Origin: Candidatus Magasanikiibacteriota bacterium
GTDB taxonomy: Bacteria > Patescibacteriota > Patescibacteriia > Magasanikbacterales > UBA922
Reading direction: 5' to 3'
DNA: 64,000 nt
Assembly: GCA_049287025.1 (NCBI GenBank)
Contig: JBAQFA010000009.1
Location: 24,802-88,801 of the forward strand
How positions within the stretch are numbered: position 1 is the stretch's first letter; each line of letters begins with the position of its first letter. The translations under genes were made by a program, and so were the position numbers. Positions 4,030 to 57,289 of this stretch are shown here, one piece after another. The notes below the pieces were generated by a model that saw nothing but the letters and a program-made list of their open reading frames with translations, was not told the DNA's origin and ran no database searches.

Positions 4030-4051
4030 GCCTCGTACGTTCGAGGCTTTT
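4030..4051 (+). terminator. Rho-independent terminator after rpmH
   Basis: gcctcg-tacgtt-cgaggc + tttt. Confidence 0.7.
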
Positions 4052-4070
4052 GTGTTATACTTTAACTATA

Positions 4071-4140: not shown

Positions 4141-4157
4141 GTAAAATCGCCCAAAAT

Positions 4158-7040: not shown

Positions 7041-7064
7041 ATCACCTAGGTTCAGGTGATTTTT
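7041..7064 (+). terminator. Rho-independent terminator
   Basis: atcacct-aggttc-aggtgat + tttt. Confidence 0.6.
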
Positions 7065-7155
7065 GTTATCTGATATCTGCACAATGTGGTATAATAAATG
7101 TAATTTTTAATGTGGGCGAACGCAACTTGAAAAGGGATTCTTCGCTTCGCTCAGA

Positions 7156-12574: not shown

Positions 12575-13588
12575 GTGAACAACCATAATCCTTGGATGGG
12601 AGGTGAGACAGGGGAAATGGCAAAGGATCTTTCGGAGAGAAAATTTCGAAGCACCGTGCGGTATGTGCGACGTCTATTGGGGGGTGGGACTGGTATTGTG
12701 ACTGCTCAACAGCTTCAGAAGGCTGGAAAACGAGCTCGCGGTCCTTTCTTTGACCCCAGAGACCATGGTCTGGTTCGTCCGTTCTTGGAGCGTGGAGCCG
12801 AAGAAGGACTCTGGGTGCTTGAGAACGGCGGTGGTCGGGCTGTCGTACCTGATGGTGTGTGGGAACAGTGGGATAGTCGTGGCGAGAGACGGCGTGAGGA
12901 ACGTCAGTCACAAGTTACGGCTCAAGCAGGAACCCGGCCAGCTTCAGTGCTGGCATCACTAGAGGAGGTCTCTATGACCGACGGTACGAAGAAGGGGGTG
13001 GGCGTATCCCCGAAAAATCCTATCTGGGTTTGGCTTCGGGCCAAGAAGGGTAGGTTGGGAGAGCTCATCGAGCTGTTCCAGGGGGTCCATGATGGTGCTC
13101 CGGTTCTCGCCAAGAAGGGTGGGGCTTTGAGTTTCCATTTTGCCCGCCCGCACCTAGTTCGGGGCCTGCAGAAGCTCGGGATGGAGCAGATCGACGATGG
13201 GTCAAAGATCCTGGCCACGGTCTTCTCCTACCTCGCCACGCCTGAGCAGGGGGTATTCGAGCGTGTGGGTTCTGGTGGGTACCCCCGCTACAAGCTCGGG
13301 CCGAAAGGGCAGAAGCTCTTGACCGAGGTCAGGAGCAGGGGCTCTGAGCCCATGCCACCGCCCGTTCCGTCCACGTCACCGACCGCTGCCCCCAGCCCGG
13401 GTGACCCGTTCGCCGAGGAGGAGGCCGCTCTCGTGGCCAAGCTCGAGGCGGTCCGTGCCAAACGCCGGCGCTTCATCGTGGTCGAGGACCTCGTGGTCAA
13501 GGCCATGAAGAAGGCCGGCATCGAGGGGACAGAGCAAGTTGAGTTCCTCAAGGCGCTCGTCAAAAAGCTCGGGGGTTCCTCCGAGTAG
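12575..13588 (+). CDS. GC-rich (about 62% GC) hypothetical protein, apparently horizontally acquired (cassette E)
   Basis: 337-codon open frame in 65% GC DNA is unlikely by chance. The sequence is protein-like (…EAALVAKLEAVRAKRRRFIVVEDLVVKAMKKAGIEG…). Likely start is the ATG at 12617 with RBS gggagg. Confidence 0.5.
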   Translation: MNNHNPWMGGETGEMAKDLSERKFRSTVRYVRRLLGGGTGIVTAQQLQKAGKRARGPFFDPRDHGLVRPFLERGAEEGLWVLENGGGRAVVPDGVWEQWDSRGERRREERQSQVTAQAGTRPASVLASLEEVSMTDGTKKGVGVSPKNPIWVWLRAKKGRLGELIELFQGVHDGAPVLAKKGGALSFHFARPHLVRGLQKLGMEQIDDGSKILATVFSYLATPEQGVFERVGSGGYPRYKLGPKGQKLLTEVRSRGSEPMPPPVPSTSPTAAPSPGDPFAEEEAALVAKLEAVRAKRRRFIVVEDLVVKAMKKAGIEGTEQVEFLKALVKKLGGSSE

Positions 13589-13795: not shown

Positions 13796-14560
13796 TTATT
13801 TCAAACTGTTCCACAACATCTCCCAAACAAGACGTTGGTTATCAGCATTGGCTTGGTCTTCAATAATGACTAGGATCATACTCTCCCAAGAAACAGTCAT
13901 TACTCGATTGCCATAAATAACAGTGTGACTTTTGAATGATTTACCTTCGGGTAAAAATTTTACTTCACGTAATTCTTCTGTGGCACGTCTAGCTTCTAAA
14001 ATACCGGATTTGGATTTTTCCACAATTATTTTTGCTTTAACCCCTAATGAAATTCGTTCGTTGGTTAATTTTTTATACTCTTCTGGAAAAGTTGTTAATA
14101 GTTTTTCTGATGAACCATATACCAAATTTTCTTTTAGATTTACTTTGTGTCTAATCCTGTCTAGATAAGCATTCCATACATTTTTTCTACCCTCAAAATA
14201 TAATACTTTTGGTTTGTTGGCACCTTTGTTTTGTAAAGCCTCAAGTTCTGGTATTAGATCAGCAAAAAGTTGCTCTTTGTAACGAAGTGAATCCAAAAAT
14301 TTTTCTGGTTCCATGGCCACAAAATATCTTTTTCTGCCTTTGTTAACCACATTCATTAAGCCTTTAAGAATTAATTTTTCTATAATGTCGTATGTAGTTA
14401 CTCTATGTATGCCGGCTTTTTGAGCAATTGTCTGGACTGAAGCATGACCAAGCTCTAAGGTGGCTAAGTAAATTTCGGCCTCTTTGGCATCTAGACCAAA
14501 TTGTTGTAATTGATTAGGTAAAATCATAAAATGTTGTAGGAAAAGTTCTACATTTTTCAT
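13796..14560 (-). CDS. TrmB-family wHTH transcriptional regulator (paralog E)
   Basis: N-terminus EAEIYLATLELGHASVQTIAQKAGIHRVTTYDIIEKLILKGL matches the TrmB HTH. Paralogous to ORFs at 28374, 30255, 31929 and 48975. Confidence 0.7.
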   Translation of the reverse strand: MKNVELFLQHFMILPNQLQQFGLDAKEAEIYLATLELGHASVQTIAQKAGIHRVTTYDIIEKLILKGLMNVVNKGRKRYFVAMEPEKFLDSLRYKEQLFADLIPELEALQNKGANKPKVLYFEGRKNVWNAYLDRIRHKVNLKENLVYGSSEKLLTTFPEEYKKLTNERISLGVKAKIIVEKSKSGILEARRATEELREVKFLPEGKSFKSHTVIYGNRVMTVSWESMILVIIEDQANADNQRLVWEMLWNSLK

Positions 14561-21780: not shown

Positions 21781-21806
21781 AAAAAGCGGGCTTAAACCCG
21801 CTTTTT
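21781..21806. terminator. Bidirectional terminator between recA (+) and ychF (-)
   Basis: aaaaagcgggc-ttaa-acccgcttttt. Confidence 0.7.
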
Positions 21807-21836
21807 GTTATGTGATATGTGTCTCGTGTTATGTGT

Positions 21837-27584: not shown

Positions 27585-27658
27585 GGGCCGTTAGCTCAGC
27601 TGGCTAGAGCGCTTCCATGGCATGGAAGAGGTCGCAGGTTCAATTCCTGTACGGTCCA
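27585..27658 (+). tRNA. tRNA-Ala (anticodon GGC)
   Basis: GGGCCGT acceptor with G3:U70, anticodon loop AUGGCAU, T-arm GGTTCAATTCC. Confidence 0.8.
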
Positions 27659-28177
27659 CAATATGAGGGGGTATCTTTACTTTATTAGGAGCTGTAATTG
27701 TAAAAGACCTTTACTATCCACTAAATCACTTTTTATAGTGATTTTTTATTTAGGTTTATATATATTATTGTACGACGCATATATATAGCTTTAATTAGTG
27801 TAATAAAACTAAAATTACTACTTAACTACCTATTTTATCCCCTATTTGTTCTTTGTGGAACAATTTCAGTGAACAGTGGCCAGTATGCAGTATTCATAAA
27901 ATACTAAATTATAAAAAATACGTTAGTTTTATTGTAGACTGAAAATTTGGTGTTGTTGTTCTTGCGATCTGATTTGTTGGGAAGCATATTTATAATTAAT
28001 ATGTTCTATGTGGAACAATTATTTATGGTTTATACACAGATAGTGGCACTTATACACAAAAATATCCACTTTTGTGGATATTTGTATAGGATATTGTAGA
28101 CAATAATACAAAATACAATATACACGGAGCAAAATACAAAATCTATGTTGTTGTTTGTATATTGTATTTTGTTTTTG

Positions 28178-28248
28178 TGGACCTAGGCAGAATCGAACTG
28201 CCGTCTCAGCAATGCGAATGCTATATATTACCACTATACTATAGGCCC
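28178..28248 (-). tRNA. tRNA-Ala (anticodon CGC)
   Basis: Reverse-strand GGGCCUA acceptor with G3:U70, anticodon loop UUCGCAU, T-arm GGCAGTTCGATTCTGCC. Confidence 0.7.
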
Positions 28249-28254
28249 GCTTAG

Positions 28255-28326
28255 TGCCCCCAGCATGAATTGAACACACATCTTGTCCTTAGGACGGACC
28301 TGTTCTATCCGTTGAACTATGGGGGC
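28255..28326 (-). tRNA. tRNA-Arg (anticodon CCU)
   Basis: Reverse-strand GCCCCCA acceptor, anticodon loop with CCU, T-arm GTGTGTTCAATTCATGC. Confidence 0.6.
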
Positions 28327-28373: not shown

Positions 28374-29123
28374 TTATTTTATCTCTGGGCAATGATCCCA
28401 CATAAATTTAAACCAGGTTTTATAGCTAGTGGCCAGTGGACGACTAATATTTACAAAAATGGTAATATCGTCACTAATCTTTGTTATTCCGGCGCCAGTA
28501 AAAGACACAACATGATCACCAAAAATGTCTACCATTGAAGGCGTAGAATATTCTTTAGGTAGGTATTTGTAAGGTTTACCTACGGCTTTTGGTACATGAG
28601 GAGCTTGTTTTAGTACTTCAAAATCAAATAAATGTTTATATTTAATACCTCGACGATCCGCATCAACTAAAAATTTATCCAAAAAGGTATTGAGTCTTGG
28701 GTCGAACCAGGCTCCCTTGGCGCCAATACAATAAACATCTTCTTTAGTAGATAATACATCACGAAGAAAATTTTTAAATCCTTCCAGACCTTTATATATG
28801 TAGGCAGCCTCTAAAACAGGATGTTTTTGGTATTCGTGCATCAAGTGTGGCATTTCTTTTTCTAGCCTAGTACGTTTTTCATCAACCAGTTCCATTAGCT
28901 TGGCTGGTTCCACTGGTTTAAATAAAGTGTCGCCATGCCCAATAACTTGAAACACTAAACCTTTTTCAATTAAGCGATTCATTGAGTCATAAATATTCCG
29001 GCGATGAATTTTACTTTTTTTTGAAATATTAGAAACCGTAGTTTGTTTTTCTTGTAAAAGTGTTTCGTAAATTTTGGCTTCGTTTATTGACAATCCTAGT
29101 TCTGTTAAAATTTGGCTATACAT
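28374..29123 (-). CDS. TrmB-family wHTH transcriptional regulator (paralog A)
   Basis: N-terminus NEAKIYETLLQEKQTTVSNISKKSKIHRRNIYDSMNRLIEKGLV; C-terminal TrmB-like domain. Confidence 0.7.
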   Translation of the reverse strand: MYSQILTELGLSINEAKIYETLLQEKQTTVSNISKKSKIHRRNIYDSMNRLIEKGLVFQVIGHGDTLFKPVEPAKLMELVDEKRTRLEKEMPHLMHEYQKHPVLEAAYIYKGLEGFKNFLRDVLSTKEDVYCIGAKGAWFDPRLNTFLDKFLVDADRRGIKYKHLFDFEVLKQAPHVPKAVGKPYKYLPKEYSTPSMVDIFGDHVVSFTGAGITKISDDITIFVNISRPLATSYKTWFKFMWDHCPEIK

Positions 29124-29296
29124 AGCAAAAATATATTAAAGTGGTGTGAAGCCACACCACGTGGTGGTATTTGCCACTCTTTATATATTATATATAATGC
29201 CTTGTTACTTTGCAAGCCGCTGCTGTGCATAAAAGCTAGATGGTGAGCGGGTAATAAGGGGTTCTTTGATAAAACAATTTGAGAAGCGAGGGACAA

Positions 29297-29479
29297 ATGG
29301 AAACTGGAGAAAGGCAAGATGAAGTTACTTGTTTGAAGAAAGAGTTGGAACATGACAAAGATGAGATATATTATTTGCGTTTGGCTATCCTTAATTTGAA
29401 TAGGAAAAAGGAGTATGTCAGAATGCAAAGGATGTTCCGTGGTGGAGAAGCTGTTCTCGACATGTGGGCGCGCTATTAA
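29297..29479 (+). CDS. Small GC-rich ORF (60 aa) in leader of cassette A
   Basis: ATG at 29297 preceded by gagggacaa; METGERQDEVTCLKKELEHDKDEIYYLRL...; weak. Confidence 0.25.
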   Translation: METGERQDEVTCLKKELEHDKDEIYYLRLAILNLNRKKEYVRMQRMFRGGEAVLDMWARY

Positions 29480-29515: not shown

Positions 29516-30103
29516 ATGCGTACAATGTTAGTCGCGTTGCTGTCGCTGGTGCTGTTTTCAAGTATTGCTCAGGCCGAAACCTACAACACCAGGTTGCTCC
29601 TGCACGGTCACAAGACCGTCGGTGAGGGATTCGGAGTCGCGGGTTGGGTGATTGCGCCCAACATCACAAGCGTACCGAACAAGTGGGTAACCCTCGTCGG
29701 CCCGTGCTACGATGGACAGGGGTGGGGTGTAGAATTGTTGGCAGGAGCGGTTGTTTCTGGTGGCGAGAGCAAGTTTCTTGTAGATGTCAGAATAACGTTC
29801 ACTCCAAAATTCTTCGGCATCCCCTTGAACACCTGGCACAACTTCCAGTGGATTCGAACCGGAGGCTCTGGCACGGGTTACTGGTATGGACAGGTTGACT
29901 GGGTGTTGCCACTCGGACTTGGACTTCTCGGTACAGAAACCGAGAACACGTTCAACGTGAGTGGCAATGACTGGTCAGTCGCGCCTCACGTCGTGATCTC
30001 TTTCGGTGATCACTTCGCGCTAGTGTTCGCTCCACAAGCTCATTTCAATGCACGTGGCTACACTGGCACGCAAGCGTGGGTTCGTACGGTCGTGAGTCAC
30101 TAG
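29516..30103 (+). CDS. GC-rich secreted hypothetical protein (cassette A)
   Basis: RBS aaggagg; signal peptide MRTMLVALLSLVLFSSIAQA; about 58% GC versus about 33% background. Confidence 0.6.
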   Translation: MRTMLVALLSLVLFSSIAQAETYNTRLLLHGHKTVGEGFGVAGWVIAPNITSVPNKWVTLVGPCYDGQGWGVELLAGAVVSGGESKFLVDVRITFTPKFFGIPLNTWHNFQWIRTGGSGTGYWYGQVDWVLPLGLGLLGTETENTFNVSGNDWSVAPHVVISFGDHFALVFAPQAHFNARGYTGTQAWVRTVVSH

Positions 30104-30175
30104 TCGTTCTTTTATAGGGGGGAGGACTTACTTGAGACTAGTCATCTCACGTGGACCGGCACGTAAAAATCCGGG

Positions 30176-30235
30176 ATTCTAGTTAGTACTAAGTAGATAT
30201 CAAAAAACCACGCCTCATCGGCGGGTTTTTTGTTT
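30176..30235 (+). repeat. About 60-bp direct repeat (copy 1) containing terminator, 3' of cassette A and abutting TrmB paralog B
   Basis: attctagttagtactaagtagatatcaaaaaaccacgcctcatcggcgggttttttgttt; second copy at 31849-31909. Confidence 0.7.
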
Positions 30236-30254
30236 ACTTTGGGTAATTTATGAT

Positions 30255-31049
30255 TTATTTTTTCTTTTTGGCAAGTTGAGAGAGTGGTACGGCCGTATTC
30301 CAAGCTAGTTCATATAGCGCTTTTAGAATTTTTACCAAAGATGTACTTTCTATCATTACACCAATTTTGTGTGGTTTATGAGTGACGAAGACAATTTTTG
30401 ATTCAAAAATATTAATTTCACCAAAAAAGTCCTCAATTCCTGGTAGTTGATTAGGTTTAAGCCATTTAATATGAGTATAAGTCATTGATCCTTTATAATT
30501 CGTCATCCAAGTTCTAGCTGTAGGTGTATCCAAAGCAATAATACGTTCATGAATTTTACGTTTACTGCGTTCACGATTATAGCCTTCACCCCAAGTTTTG
30601 AATTCCGGCCAACTCCAGCCTTCAAAATCGGCAATAGAAAGAATTTCGGTTTTTGAATCTAAGCTCTCCCAATAAATATTTTTTAAACCCTGGGTACCTT
30701 CTTGATATTTGATAACTGGCTTTTCGGCAAACTTATAAATCGAAAATAATTTTGGTAAAACTTTTTCTACATTTAATAATTTATCTTCCCATTGCTTTTT
30801 TTTGTTTTTAATATGTTGAACCAGACGCCCTGGATTTTCCGAAGTATAAATCATTTTCGATCCTTTGCCAGTCGCGCGATCTACCAAACCATACCAACCT
30901 AACTTTTCCAAAGCATAATAACCAAGCGTTCGGTTGATACCAGCTTTTTTGGTTATCTCGGCTACAGTAGCAGGACCAAGTTCGAGCAAGGCTAAATATA
31001 CTTTGCCTTCGGTTTCATCTAAACCTAATTGACTGATTAAATCTTTCAT
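30255..31049 (-). CDS. TrmB-family wHTH transcriptional regulator (paralog B)
   Basis: GKVYLALLELGPATVAEITKKAGINRTLGYYALEKLGWYGLV; about 50% identical to paralog C. Confidence 0.75.
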   Translation of the reverse strand: MKDLISQLGLDETEGKVYLALLELGPATVAEITKKAGINRTLGYYALEKLGWYGLVDRATGKGSKMIYTSENPGRLVQHIKNKKKQWEDKLLNVEKVLPKLFSIYKFAEKPVIKYQEGTQGLKNIYWESLDSKTEILSIADFEGWSWPEFKTWGEGYNRERSKRKIHERIIALDTPTARTWMTNYKGSMTYTHIKWLKPNQLPGIEDFFGEINIFESKIVFVTHKPHKIGVMIESTSLVKILKALYELAWNTAVPLSQLAKKKK

Positions 31050-31301
31050 GTTTTTATTCTACTATATATTTGGAAATGTGTCAAATCTATTTAACAGAAA
31101 ATTATTTATATAGCAAAATACTTTATAATTAGCCAAATATTAATAATTAACTAATAAAACAATATTGACAGTTATTGTAAAATGTGGAATAATAAGTAGT
31201 TCTAGAATGAAAATTCTGGAACCAAATTGATTGGGAGTGTCTGAACACTCTGTATATATGGTCTGGCGTTCTTTACACACGTGCTAGTTGGAGGGAACAT
31301 C

Positions 31302-31727
31302 ATGAAAAGGTGCATCAAGGCTCCGGGAATTAACGCTTTCAGTGGCGAGGGTGAAGTGGGGAAGTTAGAAGATGTCCCCGGAAAACAAGGTTGCCTTCCA
31401 TTTGATCCTAGTCCGGCCGTAGGGGGTTGGATGAAGGACGACAATTGTAAAGTGGAGGCACCACCAGAGGGGTGCACGCTCGAAGTGCCCGAAACGATCC
31501 TATGCCCCAATGGAAAAAACATCCCAGCTGGAAAGTACAAGGTGGGAAAACTGCCTGATGACAAGATTCTGCATCGCTATCATGATCACGTTCTGCCCCT
31601 CACCGATGAGAAGGGGGTCACCCGGCATTATTGCATTGAAAGTTCCGGTAGGCATGTCGACTGGTCGGGATGCGTCTGCATCTTGATTCGTGTGGAGACG
31701 CGCGAAGAGCGACTGCTGATTCAGTAG
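31302..31727 (+). CDS. GC-rich Cys-rich small protein (cassette B)
   Basis: RBS ggaggga before ATG 31302 (track start 31281); 10 Cys in 141 aa. Confidence 0.55.
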   Translation: MKRCIKAPGINAFSGEGEVGKLEDVPGKQGCLPFDPSPAVGGWMKDDNCKVEAPPEGCTLEVPETILCPNGKNIPAGKYKVGKLPDDKILHRYHDHVLPLTDEKGVTRHYCIESSGRHVDWSGCVCILIRVETREERLLIQ

Positions 31728-31747
31728 CCATAAATTAAGGGGGGCAA

Positions 31748-31818
31748 GACGTAGTCTGGATTCGTCAACCAGTCCACCTGCCGGAGAGGTAGGCGTAGGC
31801 CGGCGCGTGAGCTCGGCA
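31748..31818 (+). repeat. Cassette 3' element: AGACGTARTCTGRATTCGTCAAYCA ... core GCGTAGGCCGGCGCGTGAGCTCGGCA
   Basis: Core at 31793-31818; 21 nt after the stop of cassette B ORF; four more copies in the window. Confidence 0.8.
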
Positions 31819-31848
31819 CCGTGCGCCCGACACATTCAAAACGGGCAA

Positions 31849-31909
31849 ATTCTAGTTAGTACTAAGTAGATAACAAAAAACCACGCCCTATCAGCGCGGT
31901 TTTTTGTTT
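31849..31909 (+). repeat. About 60-bp direct repeat (copy 2) with terminator, abutting TrmB paralog C
   Basis: aattctagttagtactaagtagataacaaaaaaccacgccctatcagcgcggttttttgttt. Confidence 0.7.
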
Positions 31910-31928
31910 GTTTTGAATAATTTATAAA

Positions 31929-32732
31929 TTATTTTTTCTTTTTACTAGTTTTAGCAAGCGGTGTAGCTGTAATCCACGCCAGTTCAAAAATCGCTTTTAA
32001 AATATTAGATAAAGCCGTGCTTTCTATAATTATGCCAATAGGGATTGGTTTCTTGAATAAAGCCATCATTACTTTATTATCATAAATATTAATTTCACCA
32101 CCTAAATCTTTGATAGTTGGTACTTGTTCGGGTTTTATCCAGCGATAATTAATATATTTTTTTGATCCTTGATAATGTTTCATCCAATCTCTTCCTTCGG
32201 GTGTATCTAAAACCAAAACGCGTTCAGAAATTTTTCTTTTACTACGTTCGCGGGTATATTCTTTGCCCCATTTAAAAAGATTAAACTCTGGTGTATACCA
32301 AGCTTGCAAATCCAAGACTGATAAAATTTCTGATTTGGCTTCTAAAGTTTCCCAATAAATATTTTTGGCACCCTCAACACCTTCTTGAAATCTAACGCTG
32401 GGTTTTTCGGCCACGGTATAGAGTAAATAAAAATCTGGCAATTGTGATTCTAATTCTTTTTCTTTTCTTTCCCAAGTATTAATTTTTGATTTTACAAAAT
32501 GTTTTAAATTTTTGGGATCTTTGGCTACAAATTGAATGCGTTTCTTTTGTCCAGAAGAACGATTGACTAGGCCAAACCAACCAAGTTTTTCTAGGGCATG
32601 ATAACAAAGGGTGTGACCAATGCCAGCTTTGCGGGCAATGGCGCTGGCGCCAGAAGGTCCAAGTTGTAAAAGGGCAATATAGACTTTGGCTTCTGTTTCT
32701 TCAAAGCCAATGCTTTTAAGAATTTCTAACAT
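31929..32732 (-). CDS. TrmB-family wHTH transcriptional regulator (paralog C)
   Basis: AKVYIALLQLGPSGASAIARKAGIGHTLCYHALEKLGWFGLV; ends KKKK like paralog B. Confidence 0.75.
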   Translation of the reverse strand: MLEILKSIGFEETEAKVYIALLQLGPSGASAIARKAGIGHTLCYHALEKLGWFGLVNRSSGQKKRIQFVAKDPKNLKHFVKSKINTWERKEKELESQLPDFYLLYTVAEKPSVRFQEGVEGAKNIYWETLEAKSEILSVLDLQAWYTPEFNLFKWGKEYTRERSKRKISERVLVLDTPEGRDWMKHYQGSKKYINYRWIKPEQVPTIKDLGGEINIYDNKVMMALFKKPIPIGIIIESTALSNILKAIFELAWITATPLAKTSKKKK

Positions 32733-32963
32733 AGAATTTTATTTTAGAATTTATTAGATATATTTATTATAACACAAAAATAAATTTATTTCAATATCAA
32801 ATTGAAAATAATTACTAGATTGTAAATTTTTATTTAAAATAAGCCAAAAATGGTTTATTTATTTTAAATTGAGTATTGACATACTCCATAATCTAATGCA
32901 TAATTACTTGTTCTGACGATCGAGGATTGGCCTTGAGAGTTGGACGCTAACTGGGAGGGCATC

Positions 32964-33311
32964 ATGGCCGAAGAGCACGAGGTACGGTGTGATAACTGCG
33001 CCCACCACCACGTAGGAAGCGGGGGTTGTTTCGGCAAAGTAGAGAGCAGGTTCCCCATGTACGATTTTCATAGAGGAGTAAAATACTGCATGTGGGGGGG
33101 GACCCCCAGCCGAATTGTGACCTTTTCTAGATTGAAGGGGTGCCCGCTGGGTGTGGAGTTTGTGCCACTCCGCTGGTGTGGTACCTGTGGCAACTTGGTC
33201 CAAACGGACCAAGGGTGTGCTCACCGGTTGGAGGGTTGCGAGGACCCCAGCTACAGGTGCTGGAAGATTCACCCCGACCTCAAGGAGGGTATGAGACAAC
33301 AGTACCTCTAG
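32964..33311 (+). CDS. GC-rich Cys/His-rich small protein (cassette C1), putative zinc-binding
   Basis: sigma70-like promoter ttgaca-17-cataat at 32876-32904; RBS gggaggg; CDNCAHHH...CxxC motifs. Confidence 0.55.
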   Translation: MAEEHEVRCDNCAHHHVGSGGCFGKVESRFPMYDFHRGVKYCMWGGTPSRIVTFSRLKGCPLGVEFVPLRWCGTCGNLVQTDQGCAHRLEGCEDPSYRCWKIHPDLKEGMRQQYL

Positions 33312-33335
33312 ACTACCCACCTATGGGTTAAACAG

Positions 33336-33444
33336 GCGTAGGCCGACGCGTGAGCTCGGCATTCCATTTTTGTCCAAAATATTATTTTTTGCATAAAGAT
33401 GGAGGCGCTCTTTAAAAACAAACAATCCGCACTGGTGGTGTTGG
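33336..33444 (+). repeat. Cassette 3' core motif (33336-33361) plus about 85-bp conserved leader repeat
   Basis: gcgtaggccgacgcgtgagctcggca + attccatttttgt...ataaagatgg...cgctctttaaaaacaaacaa...cactggtggtgttggttg; near-identical to 34186-34292. Confidence 0.8.
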
Positions 33445-33480
33445 TTGAAGAGATATAGTTCTGACTTAACGGAGGCTAGA

Positions 33481-34149
33481 ATGGGATACGACCCAAACCA
33501 AATGGCCCAAAGGTATTTGAGGGTCGACTGGGCCGACGTGAAGGGCTATGCCGCTTACGCGGTAGAGTCCACGTTCGGGGACCAAGTACCACCACCCATA
33601 AAAAGGAGACTCGAGGTATTGGACGGTATAAGGGACAAGGAAGGTCCCGAAGCCGCCTGTCTCGAGGCAGCAAGGATCGAATGTGAATGCCAAGTCGTTC
33701 AGGAGAAAAGAACTGAACGACGGCAGTGGAGAACGGGAGACGACCCATACAAATATGGGTCTTCGTTCTCTTCGAAGTTTGTCATCATAGATTATAATGG
33801 TGAAAAAAGATTCTACATCGCTCATAATTGGCATATGCAGGCCGTTTTCGTTTTCGCCAAAATTCTGGTGGATAGAAATAAAAAAGTCGATTTTCACGTT
33901 CTGGGTGGGGGGTGGTTCCGTGCTAATCATCCCCTAACTGTTGGCGGTTTTAGCGGTGATTTTAGCTCGTTCAAAATCTCTGACTTGAGTGAGGCGTTGG
34001 GTGGGCTTGAATTCACCGACAAAGATCCCGGTGATTGGCGCACGAATTCCATGCGTGCCACCCATATTGATTGGGCTTTTATCGAAAAAGCCCGTGACTC
34101 CTCTGAGAAATACAGGGAGGTATGGAAACGGATCTTTGAGGAGGAATAA
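33481..34149 (+). CDS. GC-rich hypothetical protein (cassette C2)
   Basis: RBS ggaggct + ATG 33481 (track used TTG 33445); 222 aa; about 50% GC. Confidence 0.55.
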   Translation: MGYDPNQMAQRYLRVDWADVKGYAAYAVESTFGDQVPPPIKRRLEVLDGIRDKEGPEAACLEAARIECECQVVQEKRTERRQWRTGDDPYKYGSSFSSKFVIIDYNGEKRFYIAHNWHMQAVFVFAKILVDRNKKVDFHVLGGGWFRANHPLTVGGFSGDFSSFKISDLSEALGGLEFTDKDPGDWRTNSMRATHIDWAFIEKARDSSEKYREVWKRIFEEE

Positions 34150-34150
34150 T

Positions 34151-34292
34151 AGACGTAATCTGATTTCGTCAATCAGCGTAGGCCGGCGCGTTAGCTCGGC
34201 ATTCCATCTTTGTATAAAAATAATTTTATATAAAGATGGTTGTCGCTCTTTAAAAACAAACAACTAACACTGGTGGTGTTGGTTGGTGATAT
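34151..34292 (+). repeat. Cassette 3' element (core 34186-34211) plus leader repeat, second copy
   Basis: agacgtaatctgatttcgtcaatca gcgtaggccggcgcgttagctcggca + attccatctttgt...cactggtggtgttggttg. Confidence 0.8.
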
Positions 34293-34339
34293 ATAAAAAG
34301 GACTGGTGGCGGACACAACCCTTGGAGAAGGAGTTGAAA

Positions 34340-34759
34340 ATGAGTACTGTCAAGATACTCATCATCGACGACGGTGATGAGAAAGTCGATCGACTGAAAG
34401 GTTATGATCGACTTGGCCACCTCCATGGTGTGGAGGTGGTACGCCGATGGAATTTTAATTCGGCTCTTAAGGAAGGGCCGTACGCGTTTAATGATTTGGA
34501 GCAAACAAAGTTTGACGTGATTATTTTGGACTTTACACTGCCAATGGACAGATTCGGTCATGAGATCTTGGATAAAATTAGACACAGTCCCAGGTTTATT
34601 ATTAACGAAAGAACGGTAGTAATTGGCATTTCCACAGAGTGGAAACGTCTATTACAATATGATTTCGGTTTGAATCTTGCGATCTACAAGGAGGAAACGA
34701 TGGCTGACGAACTGGAAACAGCCATCAAGTCCTTCGTCGCCACTGGCAAAGTCAAATAA
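34340..34759 (+). CDS. Orphan CheY-like response-regulator receiver domain protein (cassette C3)
   Basis: RBS gagaaggag + ATG 34340. KILIIDDGDE...DVIILDFTLP matches the REC-domain acidic pocket and phospho-acceptor Asp. No output domain. Confidence 0.55.
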   Translation: MSTVKILIIDDGDEKVDRLKGYDRLGHLHGVEVVRRWNFNSALKEGPYAFNDLEQTKFDVIILDFTLPMDRFGHEILDKIRHSPRFIINERTVVIGISTEWKRLLQYDFGLNLAIYKEETMADELETAIKSFVATGKVK

Positions 34760-34780
34760 TTTGGGGAGGGAAAGACGAAG

Positions 34781-34824
34781 CTTGGGATTTGTCACCCAAC
34801 GTAGGCCGGCGCGTGAGCTCGGCA
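34781..34824 (+). repeat. Cassette 3' element, fourth + strand copy
   Basis: agacgaagcttgggatttgtcacccaa cgtaggccggcgcgtgagctcggca, 22 nt after stop of C3. Confidence 0.75.
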
Positions 34825-34959
34825 ATCTCCTTTTTCGCGAAAGAAAGAGCAAAAAAGATCCAGTAAAACTGGGCTTTTTTGTTTGTGGATAAAATAGTTG
34901 ACAATGTGTCTAATATCGTGTATAGTATATAATATATTATAAACTATATACTATAAACT

Positions 34960-35460
34960 ATGAAAACAGACACTACTGACAAAATTTTAGAGTATATTAA
35001 AGAAAAAGGACAGGTTAAACCAAAAGATATAATTAATTATATTGGTTTTGGTGCGCCTGCTGTTTTTAGACAATTAAAAAAACTCATAAGTGAAGGTAAG
35101 ATAGAAAAAAGTGGCACTCCACCAATGGTTTATTATCATTTTCCGATTGACATAAAAGATATAGAGGTTAACGAAAAGAAAATTTTTGATATAAAAATAA
35201 ATTTAAAAGAATTTGGTATTCATCTTTCAGATAGAGAATCAGCCAAAAGATCGTTATTGTTTATTAAGATGAGGTATAAGAAAATTATTGATAATGTCAA
35301 TAAAATTGAAATTAATTTTGAGGATATAAAAGTACTAGGACCTGGCTGGGCTGACGAATTTATTTCTAATTTATCAAAAGAGTATCCAGGAAAGATAGTT
35401 TTGTTGCCTAGTAATAATGCTAGCATAAAAGCTTCGTTACAATTTATTAATATAAAATAA
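34960..35460 (+). CDS. wHTH DNA-binding protein with C-terminal STAS-like (DUF4325-type) domain
   Basis: N-terminus ILEYIKEKGQVKPKDIINYIGFGAPAVFRQLKKLISEGKI; C-terminus KIEINFEDIKVLGPGWADEFISNL. Confidence 0.45.
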   Translation: MKTDTTDKILEYIKEKGQVKPKDIINYIGFGAPAVFRQLKKLISEGKIEKSGTPPMVYYHFPIDIKDIEVNEKKIFDIKINLKEFGIHLSDRESAKRSLLFIKMRYKKIIDNVNKIEINFEDIKVLGPGWADEFISNLSKEYPGKIVLLPSNNASIKASLQFINIK

Positions 35461-35484: not shown

Positions 35485-35799
35485 ATGAGCATTGTTTTTC
35501 TTGATGATGATGTGGAAAATTTTATTTATAGTCTAGAAAATAAAACAAAAGCTAAGGTTTTGCGAACGTTGGATTTGCTAGAAGAGTTTGGTTATAATCT
35601 GGGCATGCCACATACAAAAAAGATTAAAAATAATCTTTTTGAATTGAGAGTATTGGGTAGAAATCAGGTGCGATTATTTTATACATTTTTAAAACCAAAT
35701 ATAATTGTTTTGTGTGGCTTTAGAAAGAAGACTCAGAAAATTCCTAGTCATGAATTGGAGAAAGCCCTGCATAAATTAAAGTTGCTTGACAAGATATAA
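35485..35799 (+). CDS. higB: Type II toxin, RelE/HigB (Gp49-like) family
   Basis: 104 aa; ...ELRVLGRNQVRLFYTFLKPNIIVLCGFRKKTQKIP; immediately upstream of XRE-HTH partner. Confidence 0.6.
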   Translation: MSIVFLDDDVENFIYSLENKTKAKVLRTLDLLEEFGYNLGMPHTKKIKNNLFELRVLGRNQVRLFYTFLKPNIIVLCGFRKKTQKIPSHELEKALHKLKLLDKI

Positions 35800-35822
35800 C
35801 ATATATGTTATATTATAAATGT

Positions 35823-36095
35823 ATGAAAAATTACAATAAAATTAAATCAGAAATATTAAAAGACCCTAAGTTCAAAAAAGTCTATGACGATCTTGAGCCA
35901 GAATTTGAATTGGCTCGGCAAATTATTAAAAAGCGTTTGGAATTAGGTTGGTCTCAGTCAGAATTGGCTAGAAAAATGGGTACCAAGCAGTCGGCTATTG
36001 CCAGGTTGGAGTCTGGCGGATATAATCCAAGTATGGCTTTTTTGCAAAAAACAGTTAAGGCATTAAAGGCCGATTTACAGATAATTATTAGTTAA
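35823..36095 (+). CDS. higA: XRE-family HTH antitoxin (HigA-like)
   Basis: LARQIIKKRLELGWSQSELARKMGTKQSAIARLESG; track start 35805; ATG at 35823 likely. Confidence 0.6.
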   Translation: MKNYNKIKSEILKDPKFKKVYDDLEPEFELARQIIKKRLELGWSQSELARKMGTKQSAIARLESGGYNPSMAFLQKTVKALKADLQIIIS

Positions 36096-47596: not shown

Positions 47597-47625
47597 GTAA
47601 ATTTTACGGAAATTAAACAAAAAAT
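47597..47625 (+). repeat. 28-bp direct repeat, left flank of TrmB+cargo module D
   Basis: gtaaattttacggaaattaaacaaaaaat; partner at 49777-49806. Confidence 0.75.
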
Positions 47626-47676
47626 CCCTTCCTAAATGGTTGGGATTTTTTTGTCTCGTTTGTCGACAAGTCGAGA

Positions 47677-47702
47677 TGCCGAGCTCACGCGCCGGCCTAC
47701 GC
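47677..47702 (-). repeat. Cassette 3' core motif, reverse-strand copy after cassette D1
   Basis: Revcomp reads ctatggattaaatag GCGTAGGCCGGCGCGTGAGCTCGGCA; the upstream 15 nt also match the copy at 33321. Confidence 0.8.
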
Positions 47703-47784
47703 CTATTTAATCCATAGATGGAGTGCCACTTTTGAATGTGTGTGGCGCACAGTGAAGAGGTGTGGAACAAGCCGGCCATGTTTA

Positions 47785-48228
47785 TCAGATTTTGAATTCC
47801 TGATAAATCCTGGCCAGCACCTTTGCAGCCGTATGAACTCGTTCCAGGATGTTCGTGAGTGCGTCGGAGAATTCGTGCCACTCCCAGACAGTCTCTTCCC
47901 CGTCACTTTTCAGGTTGTAGCTACCCATCATGGCGGCAAACACTTGGTAGGCGTTAACGCTTCGGCCTGTTTTTTCCCCACGCAGTATACTGCCGTGTAT
48001 GTGTTGCGCGTAGTTTTCAAGCCACTCAACCAAATCTTCGTTCCCCTCTATTTTCTGTAGAAGCTGGTCTGCGATTTGATCAACGCTTTCCTTACAACAC
48101 TCTTCATCTGCGTCAAGTCGTAAGTACAGGCAAACGATGGCGATCAGATTGGGTGGAAGGTCATAGCATCCCTCAGGATAAGTCCTGAGCATAGGCTCGC
48201 CTTCTCCCCAGCTAGAAAGGTAGAGCAT
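47785..48228 (-). CDS. GC-rich hypothetical protein (cassette D1)
   Basis: RBS aaggaggtga + ATG at 48228; 147 aa acidic protein; about 55% GC. Confidence 0.55.
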   Translation of the reverse strand: MLYLSSWGEGEPMLRTYPEGCYDLPPNLIAIVCLYLRLDADEECCKESVDQIADQLLQKIEGNEDLVEWLENYAQHIHGSILRGEKTGRSVNAYQVFAAMMGSYNLKSDGEETVWEWHEFSDALTNILERVHTAAKVLARIYQEFKI

Positions 48229-48256
48229 CACTCACCTCCTTGTTTACAAAGAACGT

Positions 48257-48292
48257 TGTCCAACTTTCGAGGTACATCCTCGATTGTCAGAA
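48257..48292 (-). repeat. 36-bp conserved leader repeat upstream of cassette D1 start
   Basis: gtccaactttcgaggtacatcctcgattgtcagaac; second copy at 48681-48716. Confidence 0.7.
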
Positions 48293-48385
48293 CTTCCTCC
48301 ATCTTTATACAAAAAATATTTTGGACAAAGATGGAAGGCCCGGCGCTTTGTTGACGCGCGGCCGGGCGAAGCGTGGCGGAGTGTG

Positions 48386-48652
48386 TTACTCCTTGGGTGT
48401 GGAGAGGTGGAGAAAGTGGCGGATTTTTTGCCAGAAGATTTTGTTGGCTTCTATTCCGGCTTCCTTTTTCGCTCGAGCCTCCCTGATGCCCTTGTTCCTT
48501 TCGAGGCCACACTGGGGGCAGTAGGACATGTGAGGTAAGAGTTCATTTCCACACAGGCATTGTGGAAGAGCAACTCTCTTTACACCACAATATTGACAGA
48601 ACTCTGAGTATCCCACGTGACTACACATCGGGCACAGCCTACTCTCAAGCAT
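48386..48652 (-). CDS. GC-rich double zinc-ribbon small protein (cassette D2)
   Basis: RBS ggaggaagaa + ATG 48652 (track TTG 48685); CPMCSHVGYSEFCQYCG...CPQCG. Confidence 0.55.
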   Translation of the reverse strand: MLESRLCPMCSHVGYSEFCQYCGVKRVALPQCLCGNELLPHMSYCPQCGLERNKGIREARAKKEAGIEANKIFWQKIRHFLHLSTPKE

Positions 48653-48680
48653 TTCTTCCTCCAGAGTGTAAGGAATTTCG

Positions 48681-48716
48681 TCCAACTTTCGAGGCCCATC
48701 CTCGATCGTCAGAACA
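48681..48716 (-). repeat. 36-bp conserved leader repeat upstream of cassette D2 start
   Basis: gtccaactttcgaggcccatcctcgatcgtcagaac. Confidence 0.7.
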
Positions 48717-48974
48717 AGGAATTGTAGATTATTTATGAGTAATTGTCAAGATTAAGTAGTTCAAAAATGTATATAAAATAGGCTAAAATAAGCTAAATAA
48801 TTATTAACACATATAATTTTGTCGGGATGATTTGACATATATTGTTATATATGTTATATTAGTTATGGTTTAAAACATTATTTTGTTTGCTAAAGTGGTT
48901 AATTGTAGGAAAGATTCACCCTTCGGGTATCTTCGACCTCTCCGCCAGTCGGCGGATCGGAATGAACTAAAAAA

Positions 48975-49763
48975 ATGGAAAAAAATAATTTAGAAAAATT
49001 AATAGATTTGGGTCTACAAGAAAATGAAGCCAAAATATATTTGGCTTTGTTGGAATTGGGAAAAGGCAATGTGACCGAAATTAGTCGGCGCGCAGGATTG
49101 AACCGGACGACGGGTTATGATATTTTGGAACGTCTTGGTTTACATGGTATGGTGAACCGCGCCAGAGTGGGTAGTAAAAAAATTATTTATGTGGCCGAAC
49201 CGCCATCACATTTGCGTCAGTACTTGGAAGACAAAAAACGCGCCATGGAAAGACGGATGGAAGAATTAAATGATTTGTTGCCAGATTTGCAATCACTTTA
49301 TAAAACTGATATTAAACCAGTTATAAAATTTGCCGAAGGGAAAAGTGAAATGCAAAAATTGTATTTGAATGTTTTGGATGCGAAGAGTGAAGTTTATTCA
49401 ATTCTTAATTTAAAAGGTTATGCCGAAGTTTTTGATGAACTGGGTGCTTATCAATCCAAAGAACGACATAAAAAAGGCATAAAAGAAAAAGTTTTGGCTA
49501 TAAAAAATGATACCGCTCTGTGGTGGTATAATAAAACTTATAAAAATAAAACTGCCAAGGATAAAAAGTTAACCGAATATCGCTGGCTAGAAGATGCGGA
49601 AAAGTATTCTACCGCCGGAGAAGTAAATATTTTTGATGATAAAGTAATTGGTGTATTATCCAAACCAAGTGAAAATGTGGCATTTGAAATTCAATCACAG
49701 ACATTTGCGGATTTTTTGAAATTAGTTTTTGAAATGGCGTGGAAGAATAGTGAACAAAAATAA
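48975..49763 (+). CDS. TrmB-family wHTH transcriptional regulator (paralog D)
   Basis: NEAKIYLALLELGKGNVTEISRRAGLNRTTGYDILERLGLHGMV; C-terminal domain like paralogs B/C. Confidence 0.75.
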   Translation: MEKNNLEKLIDLGLQENEAKIYLALLELGKGNVTEISRRAGLNRTTGYDILERLGLHGMVNRARVGSKKIIYVAEPPSHLRQYLEDKKRAMERRMEELNDLLPDLQSLYKTDIKPVIKFAEGKSEMQKLYLNVLDAKSEVYSILNLKGYAEVFDELGAYQSKERHKKGIKEKVLAIKNDTALWWYNKTYKNKTAKDKKLTEYRWLEDAEKYSTAGEVNIFDDKVIGVLSKPSENVAFEIQSQTFADFLKLVFEMAWKNSEQK

Positions 49764-55813: not shown

Positions 55814-56224
55814 ATGATTGATAATCAAACAAAAGAGAAATTCATCGAATTAAGAGCACAAGGAAAAAGTTATAACACAATCTCTAAAGAGATTGGTGTA
55901 AGCAAACCCACACTTATTCAGTGGAGTAGAGAGTTTGTGGACGAAATTTCCAATCTTAAAGCAATAGAATTTGAAGATTTACAAGAAAAGTATTATATAC
56001 ACAAAAGAAAAAGAATAGAAATTTTTGGCACACAACTGGAAGCCATAAAGCAGGAACTTTCTTCAAGAGATCTAAAAACAATTTCAACTGAAAGGCTTTT
56101 GGATTTATTGGCTAAATTTACGACGGTATTGAAAGCAGAAGAAACAACTATAAACTTTACTACAAAAGTCAGTCCCGTTGATGATTATTTAGATCTATCA
56201 GTTGTAAAAAATTGGATTGGATAA
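55814..56224 (+). CDS. HTH-domain protein (transposase/terminase-small-subunit-type HTH), candidate regulator or recombination directionality factor
   Basis: KSYNTISKEIGVSKPTLIQWSREF helix-turn-helix. Confidence 0.5.
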   Translation: MIDNQTKEKFIELRAQGKSYNTISKEIGVSKPTLIQWSREFVDEISNLKAIEFEDLQEKYYIHKRKRIEIFGTQLEAIKQELSSRDLKTISTERLLDLLAKFTTVLKAEETTINFTTKVSPVDDYLDLSVVKNWIG

Positions 56225-56341
56225 AATATTACCAAAACTTTACTATTTTTTGACCGAGATATTCAAAGAAAGTATATATTGCTTTTATCTCGTTTTTATG
56301 ATAATATAGCGGTACTAAACATTCAGTAGACTTATAATTTT

Positions 56342-57085: not shown

Positions 57086-57088
57086 AAT

Positions 57089-57289
57089 ATGAATAATAAT
57101 TACTCGCAACAGTCTGCCCAGACAGCAGGTTCAAATGACTCTGGTTATTTTGCAAAACAAAATAATTCTACAGTAACGAGTGATTATATAACTAAAACCA
57201 AGGAAACAGCTGAATTTGTAGTTGTTAATGGTTCAGGTTATTCACAAAGACAGGCAAGAATTGTGAAAAGTAAATATGTTAGAAAGTAA
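57089..57289 (+). CDS. Small hypothetical protein
   Basis: 66 aa; tightly packed between neighbours (overlaps next ORF by 14 nt). Confidence 0.35.
   Translation: MNNNYSQQSAQTAGSNDSGYFAKQNNSTVTSDYITKTKETAEFVVVNGSGYSQRQARIVKSKYVRK

Follow-up and report, generated by a model that had tools for sequence, protein, structure and literature searches.

In a 64,000-nucleotide stretch of the Candidatus Magasanikiibacteriota assembly GCA_049287025.1 (contig JBAQFA010000009.1, positions 24,802 to 88,801, forward strand), hereafter called the window, genes of the TrmB regulator family lie beside small GC-rich genes of deviant composition, which we refer to as cargo. On balance, and with moderate confidence, we read these pairs as accessory regulator-target units, each made of a TrmB paralog and a GC-rich, lineage-specific transcript, in a genome of the Magasanikbacteria, a lineage of the candidate phyla radiation (CPR). 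The units share a common anatomy, their number and order vary between related genomes, and their sequence elements and recognizable cargo are restricted to the lineage. One cargo gene, C1, has diverged in step with its TrmB partner while staying GC-rich, and two others, C2 and C3, have diverged quickly beside theirs. The cargo genes look like long-resident accessory genes that have kept an odd composition, rather than recent acquisitions from a high-GC organism as an earlier sequence-based prediction for the region 29516-34759 had suggested. That region and its flanks make up three of the window's five TrmB-paralog modules.

Association of TrmB genes with GC-rich cargo

The window is 34% GC overall and includes housekeeping genes such as dnaA, dnaN, recA, ftsK and polA. 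NCBI lists its proteins under Candidatus Magasanikiibacteriota. Five of its genes belong to PF01978, the TrmB family, with Pfam scores of 50.2-59.4 bits against a cut-off of 25.6 bits. A TrmB gene lies within 255 bp of every GC-rich segment of at least 600 nt, and none of the five TrmB genes is without such a segment. Leaving aside two short ones that lie in alternative frames within low-GC genes, open reading frames (ORFs) with a GC content at third codon positions (GC3) of at least 0.45 were confined to three sites, each abutting a TrmB gene. Cargo GC3 ranged from 0.49 to 0.69, compared to 0.24-0.30 for the TrmB and housekeeping genes, and cargo codon use was shifted in all boxes (e.g., TTC at 0.63 versus 0.10 and GAG at 0.61 versus 0.13 in the remaining genes). 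Cysteine content was about six-fold higher in cargo than elsewhere (2.5% versus 0.4%). The GC steps at unit borders are sharp, and each cargo unit is divergent from its TrmB gene, with one convergent case (C8).

The features of the modules are given below, with labels such as L001 and L005 denoting related loci elsewhere. The ORFs listed in the original prediction were all present at their coordinates and strands; C7 and C8 are further ORFs of the same kind that it did not include.

12617..13588, plus strand: C8, 323 aa, 60% GC, an orphan convergent with TrmB paralog 4
13796..14560, minus strand: TrmB paralog 4, 254 aa, PF01978, convergent with C8
27585..28326: tRNA-Ala(GGC) on the plus strand, tRNA-Ala(CGC) and tRNA-Arg(CCT) on the minus strand, flanking module 1 (ARAGORN, Rfam)
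28374..29123, minus strand: TrmB paralog 1, 249 aa, GC3 0.26, PF01978 at 58.5 bits, partner of C1, 90% identity to its L005 ortholog
29297..29479, plus strand: C0, a 60-aa ORF of uncertain coding status in the 5' part of the C1 transcript, absent in L005, no Pfam family
29516..30103, plus strand: C1, 195 aa, GC3 0.62, signal peptide and predicted 11-12-stranded KdgM/NanC-like transmembrane beta-barrel
30255..31049, minus strand: TrmB paralog 2, 264 aa, partner of C2, 96% identity to L001 1110-1907
31302..31727, plus strand: C2, 141 aa, GC3 0.56, 8 Cys, no CxxC pair, divergent homolog in the same L001 module
31929..32732, minus strand: TrmB paralog 3, 267 aa, PF01978, partner of the C3-C4-C5 operon
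32964..33311, plus strand: C3, 115 aa, GC3 0.68, 10 Cys, 7 His, two CxxC pairs
33481..34149, plus strand: C4, 222 aa, GC3 0.52, ECEC motif, strict orphan
34340..34759, plus strand: C5, 139 aa, GC3 0.49, divergent receiver-like protein
47620..48720, minus strand: second array, in the order leader, C6, junction, C7, GTAG-hairpin motif (47677-47701), terminator
47785..48228, minus strand: C7, orphan
48386..48652, minus strand: C6, 88 aa, 8 Cys, three CxxC pairs, a double zinc ribbon by motif
48975..49763, plus strand: TrmB paralog 5, 262 aa, PF01978, divergent from the C6-C7 operon

NCBIfam equivalogs for TrmB and TrmBL1 scored 18-32 bits on the window TrmB proteins against cut-offs of 600-650, and the TrmB chain 3qph of the Protein Data Bank (PDB) aligned to residues 4-140 alone. 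A single TrmB query found no viral relatives.

C1 shows how one such pair has evolved. In five independent genomes or contexts, C1 and a TrmB gene point away from each other, and the pair adjoins the same tRNA-Ala(CGC), tRNA-Arg(CCT) and tRNA-Ala(GGC) genes in the window, in L005 and in the distant L007. Across all 10 genome pairs, the identities of TrmB and C1 co-vary (90/69, 84/57, 71/63 and 69/58, down to 50/35). Between the window and L005, C1 differs by 0.26/0.14/0.49 at the three codon positions and retains 69% identity, compared to 61% for RmuC. Judging from these patterns, C1 is under ordinary purifying selection and is inherited vertically or jointly with TrmB.

In every genome, C1 has a GC3 of 0.56-0.81 beside neighbours at 0.19-0.37 (0.25-0.37 for the TrmB partners). 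Third positions of the genes flanking C1 differ by 0.36-0.57 between genomes, and synonymous sites are largely saturated. Given this divergence, a neutral foreign composition should have decayed, which implies that the high GC has been maintained. Together, co-divergence with TrmB and persistent GC argue that these transcripts retain their high GC as a lasting trait, and that it is not the signature of a fresh transfer.

C2 and C3 could be compared with L001, a locus of Ca. Magasanikbacteria UBA11710 (GTDB). TrmB paralog 2 has 96% identity to its L001 counterpart while the adjoining C2 has 42%, and L001 carries an extra ORF there. TrmB paralog 3 has 79% identity, and C3 48-51% with 8 of 10 cysteines kept. 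By these identities, C2 and C3 stay with their cognate TrmB yet diverge much faster than it.

These results bear on the proposal that the cargo was acquired from, or mimics, a high-GC host. Under this explanation, host-mimicking effectors would have arrived by recent horizontal transfer from a high-GC host or neighbour and would not yet have ameliorated. The sharp GC steps and foreign-looking codon usage are what one would expect of such an event. C8 is rich in Ala, Gly, Arg and Pro, as is typical of high-GC organisms, the fold of C1 is otherwise a diderm trait, and C4, C5, C7 and C8 are without relatives that would show vertical descent. However, no donor-side homolog was found for C1, C4 or C5 among 5.8 billion proteins, where C1 had 12 homologs, none named outside the Magasanikbacteria-type lineage, and C4 matched only itself. 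An exhaustive phmmer search covering 1.84 billion representatives likewise returned C4 alone, and by tblastn none of 50,697 phage and 72,556 plasmid records matched any of the eight cargo proteins. For C1, recent transfer is contradicted by its co-divergence with an AT-rich TrmB gene in five genomes and by its high GC despite saturated synonymous sites. C2 and C3 have homologs in the same TrmB-specific modules of UBA11710, and the GC-rich stretch has the same extent as the transcript, with leader and 3' motifs specific to the lineage. We consider recent transfer rather unlikely, though less securely so for the strict orphans, and the acquisition or mimicry suggested by the original prediction was not borne out.

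The tRNA genes of module 1 have counterparts elsewhere. Genes for tRNA-Ala(GGC), tRNA-Ala(CGC) and tRNA-Arg(CCT), which read G/C-ending codons, stand beside the TrmB-C1 pair over deep divergence (window 27585-28326, L005 2822-4972, L007 4473-4911). We considered a link between the adjoining tRNA-Ala(CGC/GGC) genes and cargo codon use and rejected it, as Ala codon use equals background and only AGG is enriched (0.22 versus 0.04). Between the tRNA genes of L005, 1.5 kb from TrmB, 3025-3504 (plus strand) encodes a lipoprotein with thrombospondin type-3 calcium-binding repeats at a GC of 0.56; GC-rich secreted proteins of the lineage are therefore not always TrmB-adjacent.

Unit anatomy and variation between relatives

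The units follow a plan that we read from the sequence: a TrmB gene, a divergent TTGACA-N17-TATAAT-like promoter, a palindromic leader, a strong Shine-Dalgarno sequence, one to three ORFs, a conserved 3' untranslated region (UTR) and an intrinsic terminator. The leader starts about 5 nt past the -10 box, spans about +1 to +35, and its RNA is predicted to fold as a 5'-terminal hairpin. Every cargo ORF has a GGAGG-type Shine-Dalgarno sequence 5-9 nt ahead of its ATG. The leader GTTCTGAC-GA-TCGAGG-N5-CCTCGA-AA-GTTGGAC occurs upstream of both C6 (48715, minus strand) and C7 (48293, minus strand), the C3 copy has CCTTGA-GA at the corresponding place, and leaders of the C3 type were also found in L001, L003 and L004. 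One promoter, TTGACA-N17-(C/T)A(T/C)AAT, precedes the co-oriented C3-C4-C5 and one precedes C6-C7, and inspection by eye revealed no canonical promoters at cargo-cargo junctions. Inside the arrays, C7 has its own full leader copy, C4 has the first eight bases, and C5 has neither. A leader scan of viral contigs gave 6 chance matches, all inside ORFs of unrelated contigs. We also considered whether the leader is a hammerhead ribozyme (CUGACGA ... GAAA) and rejected this reading, as the core spacing is non-canonical and there was no Rfam ribozyme match.

The promoter, leader and 3' elements of the modules are as follows.

29141..29160, no strand: candidate operator, the perfect palindrome GTGGTGTG-AAGC-CACACCAC, upstream of the C1 promoter and kept in L005
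30125..30232, plus strand: C1 3' UTR, with a Shine-Dalgarno-like box, an H-type pseudoknot (30125-30149), a CCGG hairpin and an intrinsic terminator; sub-threshold Rfam matches are terminator-like
31165..31225, plus strand: C2 promoter TTGACA-N17-AATAAT and leader GTTCTAGAA-N6-TTCTGGAAC, a sequence reading
31748..31905, plus strand: C2 3' UTR, with a pseudoknot (31748-31772), the GTAG-hairpin motif (31794-31818) and a terminator
32876..32945, plus strand: C3 promoter TTGACA-N17-CATAAT and leader GTTCTGAC-GA-TCGAGG-N5-CCTTGA-GA-GTTGGAC, likewise a sequence reading
33337..33457, plus strand: C3-C4 junction, with the GTAG-hairpin motif, an AT-rich hairpin and a conserved 52-nt block (repeat D8)
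34152..34295, plus strand: C4-C5 junction, with a pseudoknot (34152-34176), the GTAG-hairpin motif (34177-34201), an AT-rich hairpin and a second D8 copy
34774..34885, plus strand: C5 3' UTR, with a pseudoknot that includes a G-U pair (34774-34799), the GTAG-hairpin motif (34800-34824) and a terminator

The constant 3' motif, CGTAGGCCGGCGCGTGAGCTCGGCA, has five copies in the window where zero are expected by chance, and all five sit in cargo 3' UTRs or junctions. It takes the form of GTAG followed by a GCCGG...CTCGGC imperfect palindrome, and its hairpins vary between G-U and G-C pairs, which points to structure at the RNA level. The motif is preceded by either a short hairpin or a Shine-Dalgarno-like box with an H-type pseudoknot of 25-26 nt. 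Helix 2 of the pseudoknot differs in sequence in almost every copy while its complementarity is kept. Pairing held in 95.6% of cells compared to 77% in shuffles (0 of 500 reached the observed value), and double changes were seen in 6 of 9 pairs, with slid controls at 13-53%. Rfam searches at gathering and permissive thresholds returned tRNAs and terminator look-alikes only, with nothing on the leader or the 3' motif. We regard the leader and the pseudoknot-bearing 3' UTR as candidate new RNA or operator motifs.

Outside the window, exact matches to the 3' motif were found in 1 other species of 185,579 (UBA11710, at L001) and on three metagenome contigs, and viral contigs had 0 matches.

Several further elements recur around the 3' motif. 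An AT-rich hairpin, TTCCATCTTTGT...ATAAAGATGG, is common to the cargo-cargo junctions at 33362-33457, 34202-34295 and 48335-48297 (minus strand). Both junctions of the C3-C4-C5 array (array A) carry a 52-nt block, CGCTCTTTAAAAACAAACAA....CACTGGTGGTGTTGGTTG, whose GTGGTG core resembles the 29141-29160 palindrome upstream of C1. These junction elements may serve for processing, act as internal operators or mark the joints between cassettes. An extra 3'-UTR hairpin, GTGCGCC-(CCCG/CCGG/GCCAC)-ACACATTCAAAA-(CGGG/CCGG/GTGGC), has a covarying stem and is found at 31819-31850 and 47745-47715 (minus strand) in the window, near 8320 (minus strand) in L004 and near 6640 in L005, variously combined with the other 3' elements.

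Related genomes differ in the number and order of their modules. L001 shares synteny with the window across the latter's 27.6-34.9 kb section, with modules permuted and different in content. DNA homology between the two stops at 31213, just past the -10 box, and is found again only inside the 3' UTR, shortly before the 3' motif. The same leader and 3' motif flank ORFs that are not homologous to one another, including C3, C6/C7 and a 109-aa Cys-rich protein beside rmuC in L004, as well as a 167-aa ORF in L002. A chimeric assembly was rejected as the source of this arrangement, since the same architecture appears in independent assemblies. We also rejected a diversity-generating retroelement, as no template/variable repeat pair was found.

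This variation raises the question of whether the units are mobile cassettes, of an integron-like, REP/RAYT-like or IS200/IS605-like kind, moved by a recombinase in trans and drawn from a shared GC-rich pool. Constant flanks around unrelated ORFs, the full leader of C7 and the eight leader bases of C4, arrays of 1-3 ORFs with conserved junction blocks, and near relatives whose content and order differ with breakpoints at promoter and 3' motif are all features that cassettes would display. REP elements, which RAYT transposases recognise, consist of GTAG plus an imperfect palindrome, and the 3' motif has this form. On the other hand, the window ORFs scanned include neither a tyrosine integrase nor a Y1 transposase. 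The sole recombinase is a large serine recombinase at 58805-60442, 24 kb away at tRNA-Pro. The arrays contain no RYYYAAC...GTTRRRY pairs, the bases ahead of the leaders show no consistent target sequence, and the motif is low-copy, with its known occurrence elsewhere limited to one species and three contigs. C1 behaves as vertically inherited, and cargo families stay with their cognate TrmB paralog. Mobility of this kind is in our judgement unlikely, and the term cassette used in the original prediction gives way to regulator-target modules, with no IntI seen and no attC-type sites.

Within 58805-60497, the serine recombinase (545 aa; Resolvase, Recombinase and Zn_ribbon_recom domains) overlaps tRNA-Pro(TGG) at its 3' end. 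Five very low-GC orphan ORFs (55814-58744) lie upstream of it, and the same block is present in L017. This block is probably an element integrated at the tRNA-Pro/Phe/Ala cluster.

Cargo proteins and their coding status

C1 had been described as a beta-rich protein with a signal peptide, and both features were supported. The signal peptide, MRTMLVALLSLVLFSSIAQA/ET, is conserved in 11 homologs, and an AlphaFold2 (AF2) model built from an 11-sequence alignment was an up-and-down all-beta structure with a predicted local distance difference test score (pLDDT) of 71 and a predicted template modelling score (pTM) of 0.61. The first 35 residues of the mature protein were poorly modelled. Most homologs end in ...V-x-N-F/L, whereas the window copy ends in ...VVSH without the terminal aromatic. 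The PF06178 profile did not match C1, placing it outside the KdgM/NanC family by sequence. In the model, C1 is nonetheless predicted to be a 12-stranded antiparallel barrel with a signal peptide. This fold is unexpected because CPR bacteria are regarded as monoderm (10.1101/2021.05.31.446380).

The original prediction had called the cargo secreted, which applies to C1 and not to the other proteins it listed, as these have no signal peptide. It had also described three small Cys/His-rich proteins with CxxC pairs. C3 and C6 fit this description with two and three pairs, respectively, and C2 has eight cysteines without a CxxC. In C6, CxxC pairs lie at residues 7, 19 and 45 and a CxC at 32, and the protein scored 24.3 bits on PF13240, just under the cut-off of 25.0. 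C2, C3 and C6 are small Cys-rich proteins, probably stabilised by metal or disulfides.

C5 was thought to be a stand-alone CheY-like receiver (REC) domain, and the evidence for this is mixed. Read by eye, D10-D11, D64, S97 and K116 occur in order, and the spacing of the acidic pair, Asp, Ser and Lys fits that of CheY. Sequence matches in the PDB were weak (best E = 0.036) and nearly all to receiver domains, with the segment FDVIILDFTLPM around D64 aligning to the acceptor segment FDLILLDLELPM of PmrA. NCBI names the protein 'response regulator'. However, C5 scored 21.3 bits on PF00072 in Pfam, below the 30.2-bit cut-off, and had no relatives at E of 0.001 or less among the 5.8 billion proteins. 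A single-sequence AF2 model had a pLDDT of 41 and was uninformative about a (beta-alpha)5 fold. None of the window ORFs that were scanned with Pfam is a histidine kinase.

C4 contains the ECEC motif previously reported for this 222-aa protein. Searches of Pfam and NCBIfam placed no cargo protein above a curated cut-off, and the cargo of related loci likewise had nothing above cut-off in Pfam. PHROGs and PADLOC gave only weak matches (best E about 1e-4), to C5 and C6 only. PDB sequence searches with C2, C3, C4, C7 and C8 found nothing below E = 0.1. Within 29516-34759, no enzyme family was detected with Pfam, PHROGs, PADLOC or NCBIfam, in agreement with the absence of metabolic enzymes noted earlier. 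The description of the repertoire as accessory rather than housekeeping holds insofar as the cargo is lineage-restricted or orphan and outside curated families, while its functions are something we infer. The resemblance to effector or signalling modules, also put forward there, is a reasonable hypothesis. Conserved housekeeping orthologs at these positions had been named as the observation that would overturn this description; C1 is conserved at the same position in related genomes, and it is not a known housekeeping gene.

Alternatively, the cargo ORFs might be by-products of stop-poor stretches that are in reality structured non-coding RNAs or compositional islands. Every island has overlapping ORFs in several frames and on both strands, conserved structured elements stand at both ends, and C4 and C5 are without homologs. 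We compared ORF lengths with dinucleotide shuffles: only 1 of 1000 shuffles reached the length of C4, 0 of 1000 that of C8 and 14 of 1000 that of C1, C5 and C7 were borderline (about 0.04), and C2, C3 and C6 were not longer than the longest frames of shuffled sequence. The coding status of the latter three leans on homologs with conserved cysteines or on zinc-ribbon motifs, namely the 8 of 10 Cys kept at 48% identity in C3 and the three CxxC pairs and zinc-ribbon match of C6. Against non-coding islands, every proposed ORF has a GGAGG-type Shine-Dalgarno sequence at the right distance, and C1 has a coding substitution pattern, a signal peptide that its homologs keep and a barrel whose core is modelled with confidence. 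The alignment of C5 to receiver domains covers the surroundings of the phospho-acceptor Asp, the lengths of C4 and C8 are well beyond chance, and no Rfam family matched. We find this explanation very improbable overall. It is unlikely for C1, C3, C4, C5 and C8, whereas the case against it is less secure for C2, C6, C7 and C0.

A further alternative is a defence or toxin-immunity island, in which the small proteins would be toxins, immunity proteins or anti-phage effectors repressed by the TrmB-like proteins. The partners are indeed fast-evolving, small and orphan, a HigB/HigA-like pair lies directly downstream (35485-36095), the winged helix-turn-helix (wHTH) of the TrmB proteins resembles Csa3/CasR-type HTH domains at weak scores, and C5 has weak matches to PADLOC PDC-M60. 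Yet no PADLOC or PHROGs family was significant, the best matches (E about 1e-4) fell on receiver-like or zinc-ribbon segments, Pfam revealed no nuclease, ATPase or other typical defence domain, and the conserved barrel C1 evolves under purifying selection of an ordinary kind. We regard a defence island as quite improbable.

The HigB-like pair consists of a Gp49/HigB-like toxin (PF05973) and an HTH_3 antitoxin (35485-36095, plus strand) directly downstream of array A, and is preceded by an HTH and DUF4325 gene at 34960-35460. HigB-type toxins cut A-rich codons, of which the cargo has few: AAA makes up 0.46 of Lys codons in cargo versus 0.86 elsewhere.

Other features of the window are separate from the modules. 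On the minus strand at 23933-26299, one 788-aa ORF joins glucose-6-phosphate dehydrogenase (G6PD_N and G6PD_C) to 6-phosphogluconate dehydrogenase (NAD_binding_2 and 6PGD), a putative zwf-gnd fusion. Beside a Na+/H+ exchanger gene, 49909-53469 (plus strand) encodes a surface-type protein of 1186 aa that combines five lamin-tail domains with a PKD domain and, at its C-terminus, an OB fold; it occupies the same position in L015. The 27-nt repeat TTTTTGTTATCTG(A/C)TATCTGCAC is intergenic at 695-721, 7060-7086 and 21802-21828, near the ends of dnaN, a Mg-chelatase-like gene and ychF. Minus-strand dnaN and dnaA (2000-4200) face an rpmH-rnpA-yidD-type neighbourhood (L018), and cumulative GC skew reaches its minimum near 1-3 kb; 2000-4200 is a probable replication origin region.

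Proposed mechanism and comparison with known systems

Under the regulator-target reading, each TrmB paralog would bind a palindrome near the promoter of its partner and, depending on a ligand, turn expression of the unit on or off. The 6-N5-6 leader is placed where a bound repressor would block RNA polymerase. The structures at both ends, together with the GC-rich body, could make these mRNAs unusually stable in an AU-rich transcriptome. Their products would be lineage-specific envelope or interaction proteins and small regulators, rather than enzymes. That a force keeps GC high is something we infer.

A number of observations weigh against this reading. Regulation of the cargo by TrmB is suggested by adjacency and palindromes only, and the C-terminal part of the window TrmB proteins (about residues 110-265) has no Pfam or NCBIfam domain. 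Some GC-rich ORFs in L005 and L015 have no adjoining TrmB gene, and related loci were retrieved via the 3' motif or C1, which biases statistics on TrmB association outside the window. Whole-mRNA folding was modestly above shuffles, with z = -1.8 for C3 and z = -3.2 for C1 (20 shuffles), so the idea of stable mRNAs is weakly supported beyond the end structures. The C1 model is of medium confidence at its pLDDT and alignment depth, and it is hard to see where a CPR cell, regarded as monoderm, would place a transmembrane beta-barrel. Chance ORFs in GC-rich sequence reach the lengths of C2, C3 and C6. Lastly, C4, C5, C7 and C8 are without homologs that could reveal their history, a foreign origin included.

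A bolder version of the regulator-target reading, which we hold to be unlikely, is that the units produce privileged GC-rich, end-protected mRNAs switched singly by an expanded TrmB family. Their composition would be actively maintained, for example against AU-directed RNases or against mRNA interferases that cut A-rich codons, such as the HigB-type toxin nearby, and the barrel would be exported by a monoderm epibiont to its own unusual envelope or to the outer membrane of a diderm host. In a variant of this version, the unit of leader, ORF and GTAG hairpin would be a new mobilisable cassette that needs no integrase.

CPR bacteria have small genomes and few regulators, and their dealings with hosts are mostly unknown. 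Literature searches turned up no relevant work on TrmB or on GC-rich islands in this group. An expanded regulator family tied one-to-one to compositionally deviant orphans is a tractable candidate for a host- or environment-response regulon. Moreover, adjacent, co-inherited genes that have stayed at a GC3 of about 0.3 in one and about 0.6-0.8 in the other through deep divergence present a clean case against equating a GC island with recent transfer. This contrast calls for a maintaining force, be it cassette turnover, biased conversion or selection on mRNA. Since the lineage is regarded as having no outer membrane, a porin-like barrel in it bears on the architecture of the CPR envelope or on the tapping of diderm hosts.

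Among known systems, TrmB and TrmBL1 of the Thermococcales share with the window proteins the PF01978 N-terminal wHTH (50-59 bits), a coiled-coil helix and the position of the regulator beside its presumed target. The TGM operator of TrmBL1, TATCAC-N5-GTGATA, has the same 6-N5-6 geometry as the leader TCGAGG-N5-CCTCGA. TrmBL1 represses from a site downstream of the promoter. However, TrmB is about 340 aa with a sugar-binding C-terminus, compared to 250-267 aa and none recognisable in the window. TrmB targets are sugar transport and glycolytic genes rather than GC-rich orphans, and the present host is bacterial (CPR), with at least 5 paralogs in 64 kb.

C1 resembles KdgM and NanC (PDB 4pr7, 2wjr and 8xua) in having about 175 mature residues, a Sec signal peptide and, in most homologs, the ...V-x-N-F/L end. 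Sequence identity is 6-11% with no PF06178 match, and KdgM and NanC reside in an outer membrane assembled by BAM, whereas the host of C1 is in a group regarded as monoderm. The kdgM and nanC genes are under dedicated regulators of sugar-responsive families, as C1 would be under its TrmB partner. C5 can be compared with single-domain response regulators of the CheY-like type (PF00072), having 139 aa with DD(10,11), D64, S97 and K116; it differs in falling below the Pfam cut-off and in having no relative among the 5.8 billion proteins.

Chromosomal integrons, such as the Vibrio superintegron, are similar in that short same-strand, mostly orphan ORFs are each followed by a structured repeat, with one promoter divergent from a conserved gene. 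Their composition is likewise unlike that of the host genome, their content varies between relatives, and the cassettes are promoterless and co-oriented, as in C3-C4-C5 and C6-C7. In the window, TrmB stands in place of IntI: the genes flanking all three arrays belong to PF01978, and the other large window ORFs include no Phage_integrase. On either strand, the three arrays have no attC R''/R' core pairs (RYYYAAC/GTTRRRY, 40-150 nt apart), of which the whole window has 8. Only 1-3 ORFs make up each array, the loci are scattered, each has its own regulator, and cargo is linked to a given TrmB paralog.

The ends of the transcripts recall REP/BIME elements and 3'-UTR stabilisers, in that the 3' motif is a GTAG-headed, GC-rich imperfect palindrome between the stop codon and the terminator or next gene. 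Unlike REP elements, the window motif is low-copy (5 in 64 kb), confined to TrmB-linked units and found with no RAYT gene in the window, and it is preceded by a Shine-Dalgarno-like box and a covarying pseudoknot with no Rfam match. At the opposite end, the leader is a hairpin at the 5' end of the transcript, as is the stabilising hairpin of ompA-type mRNAs.

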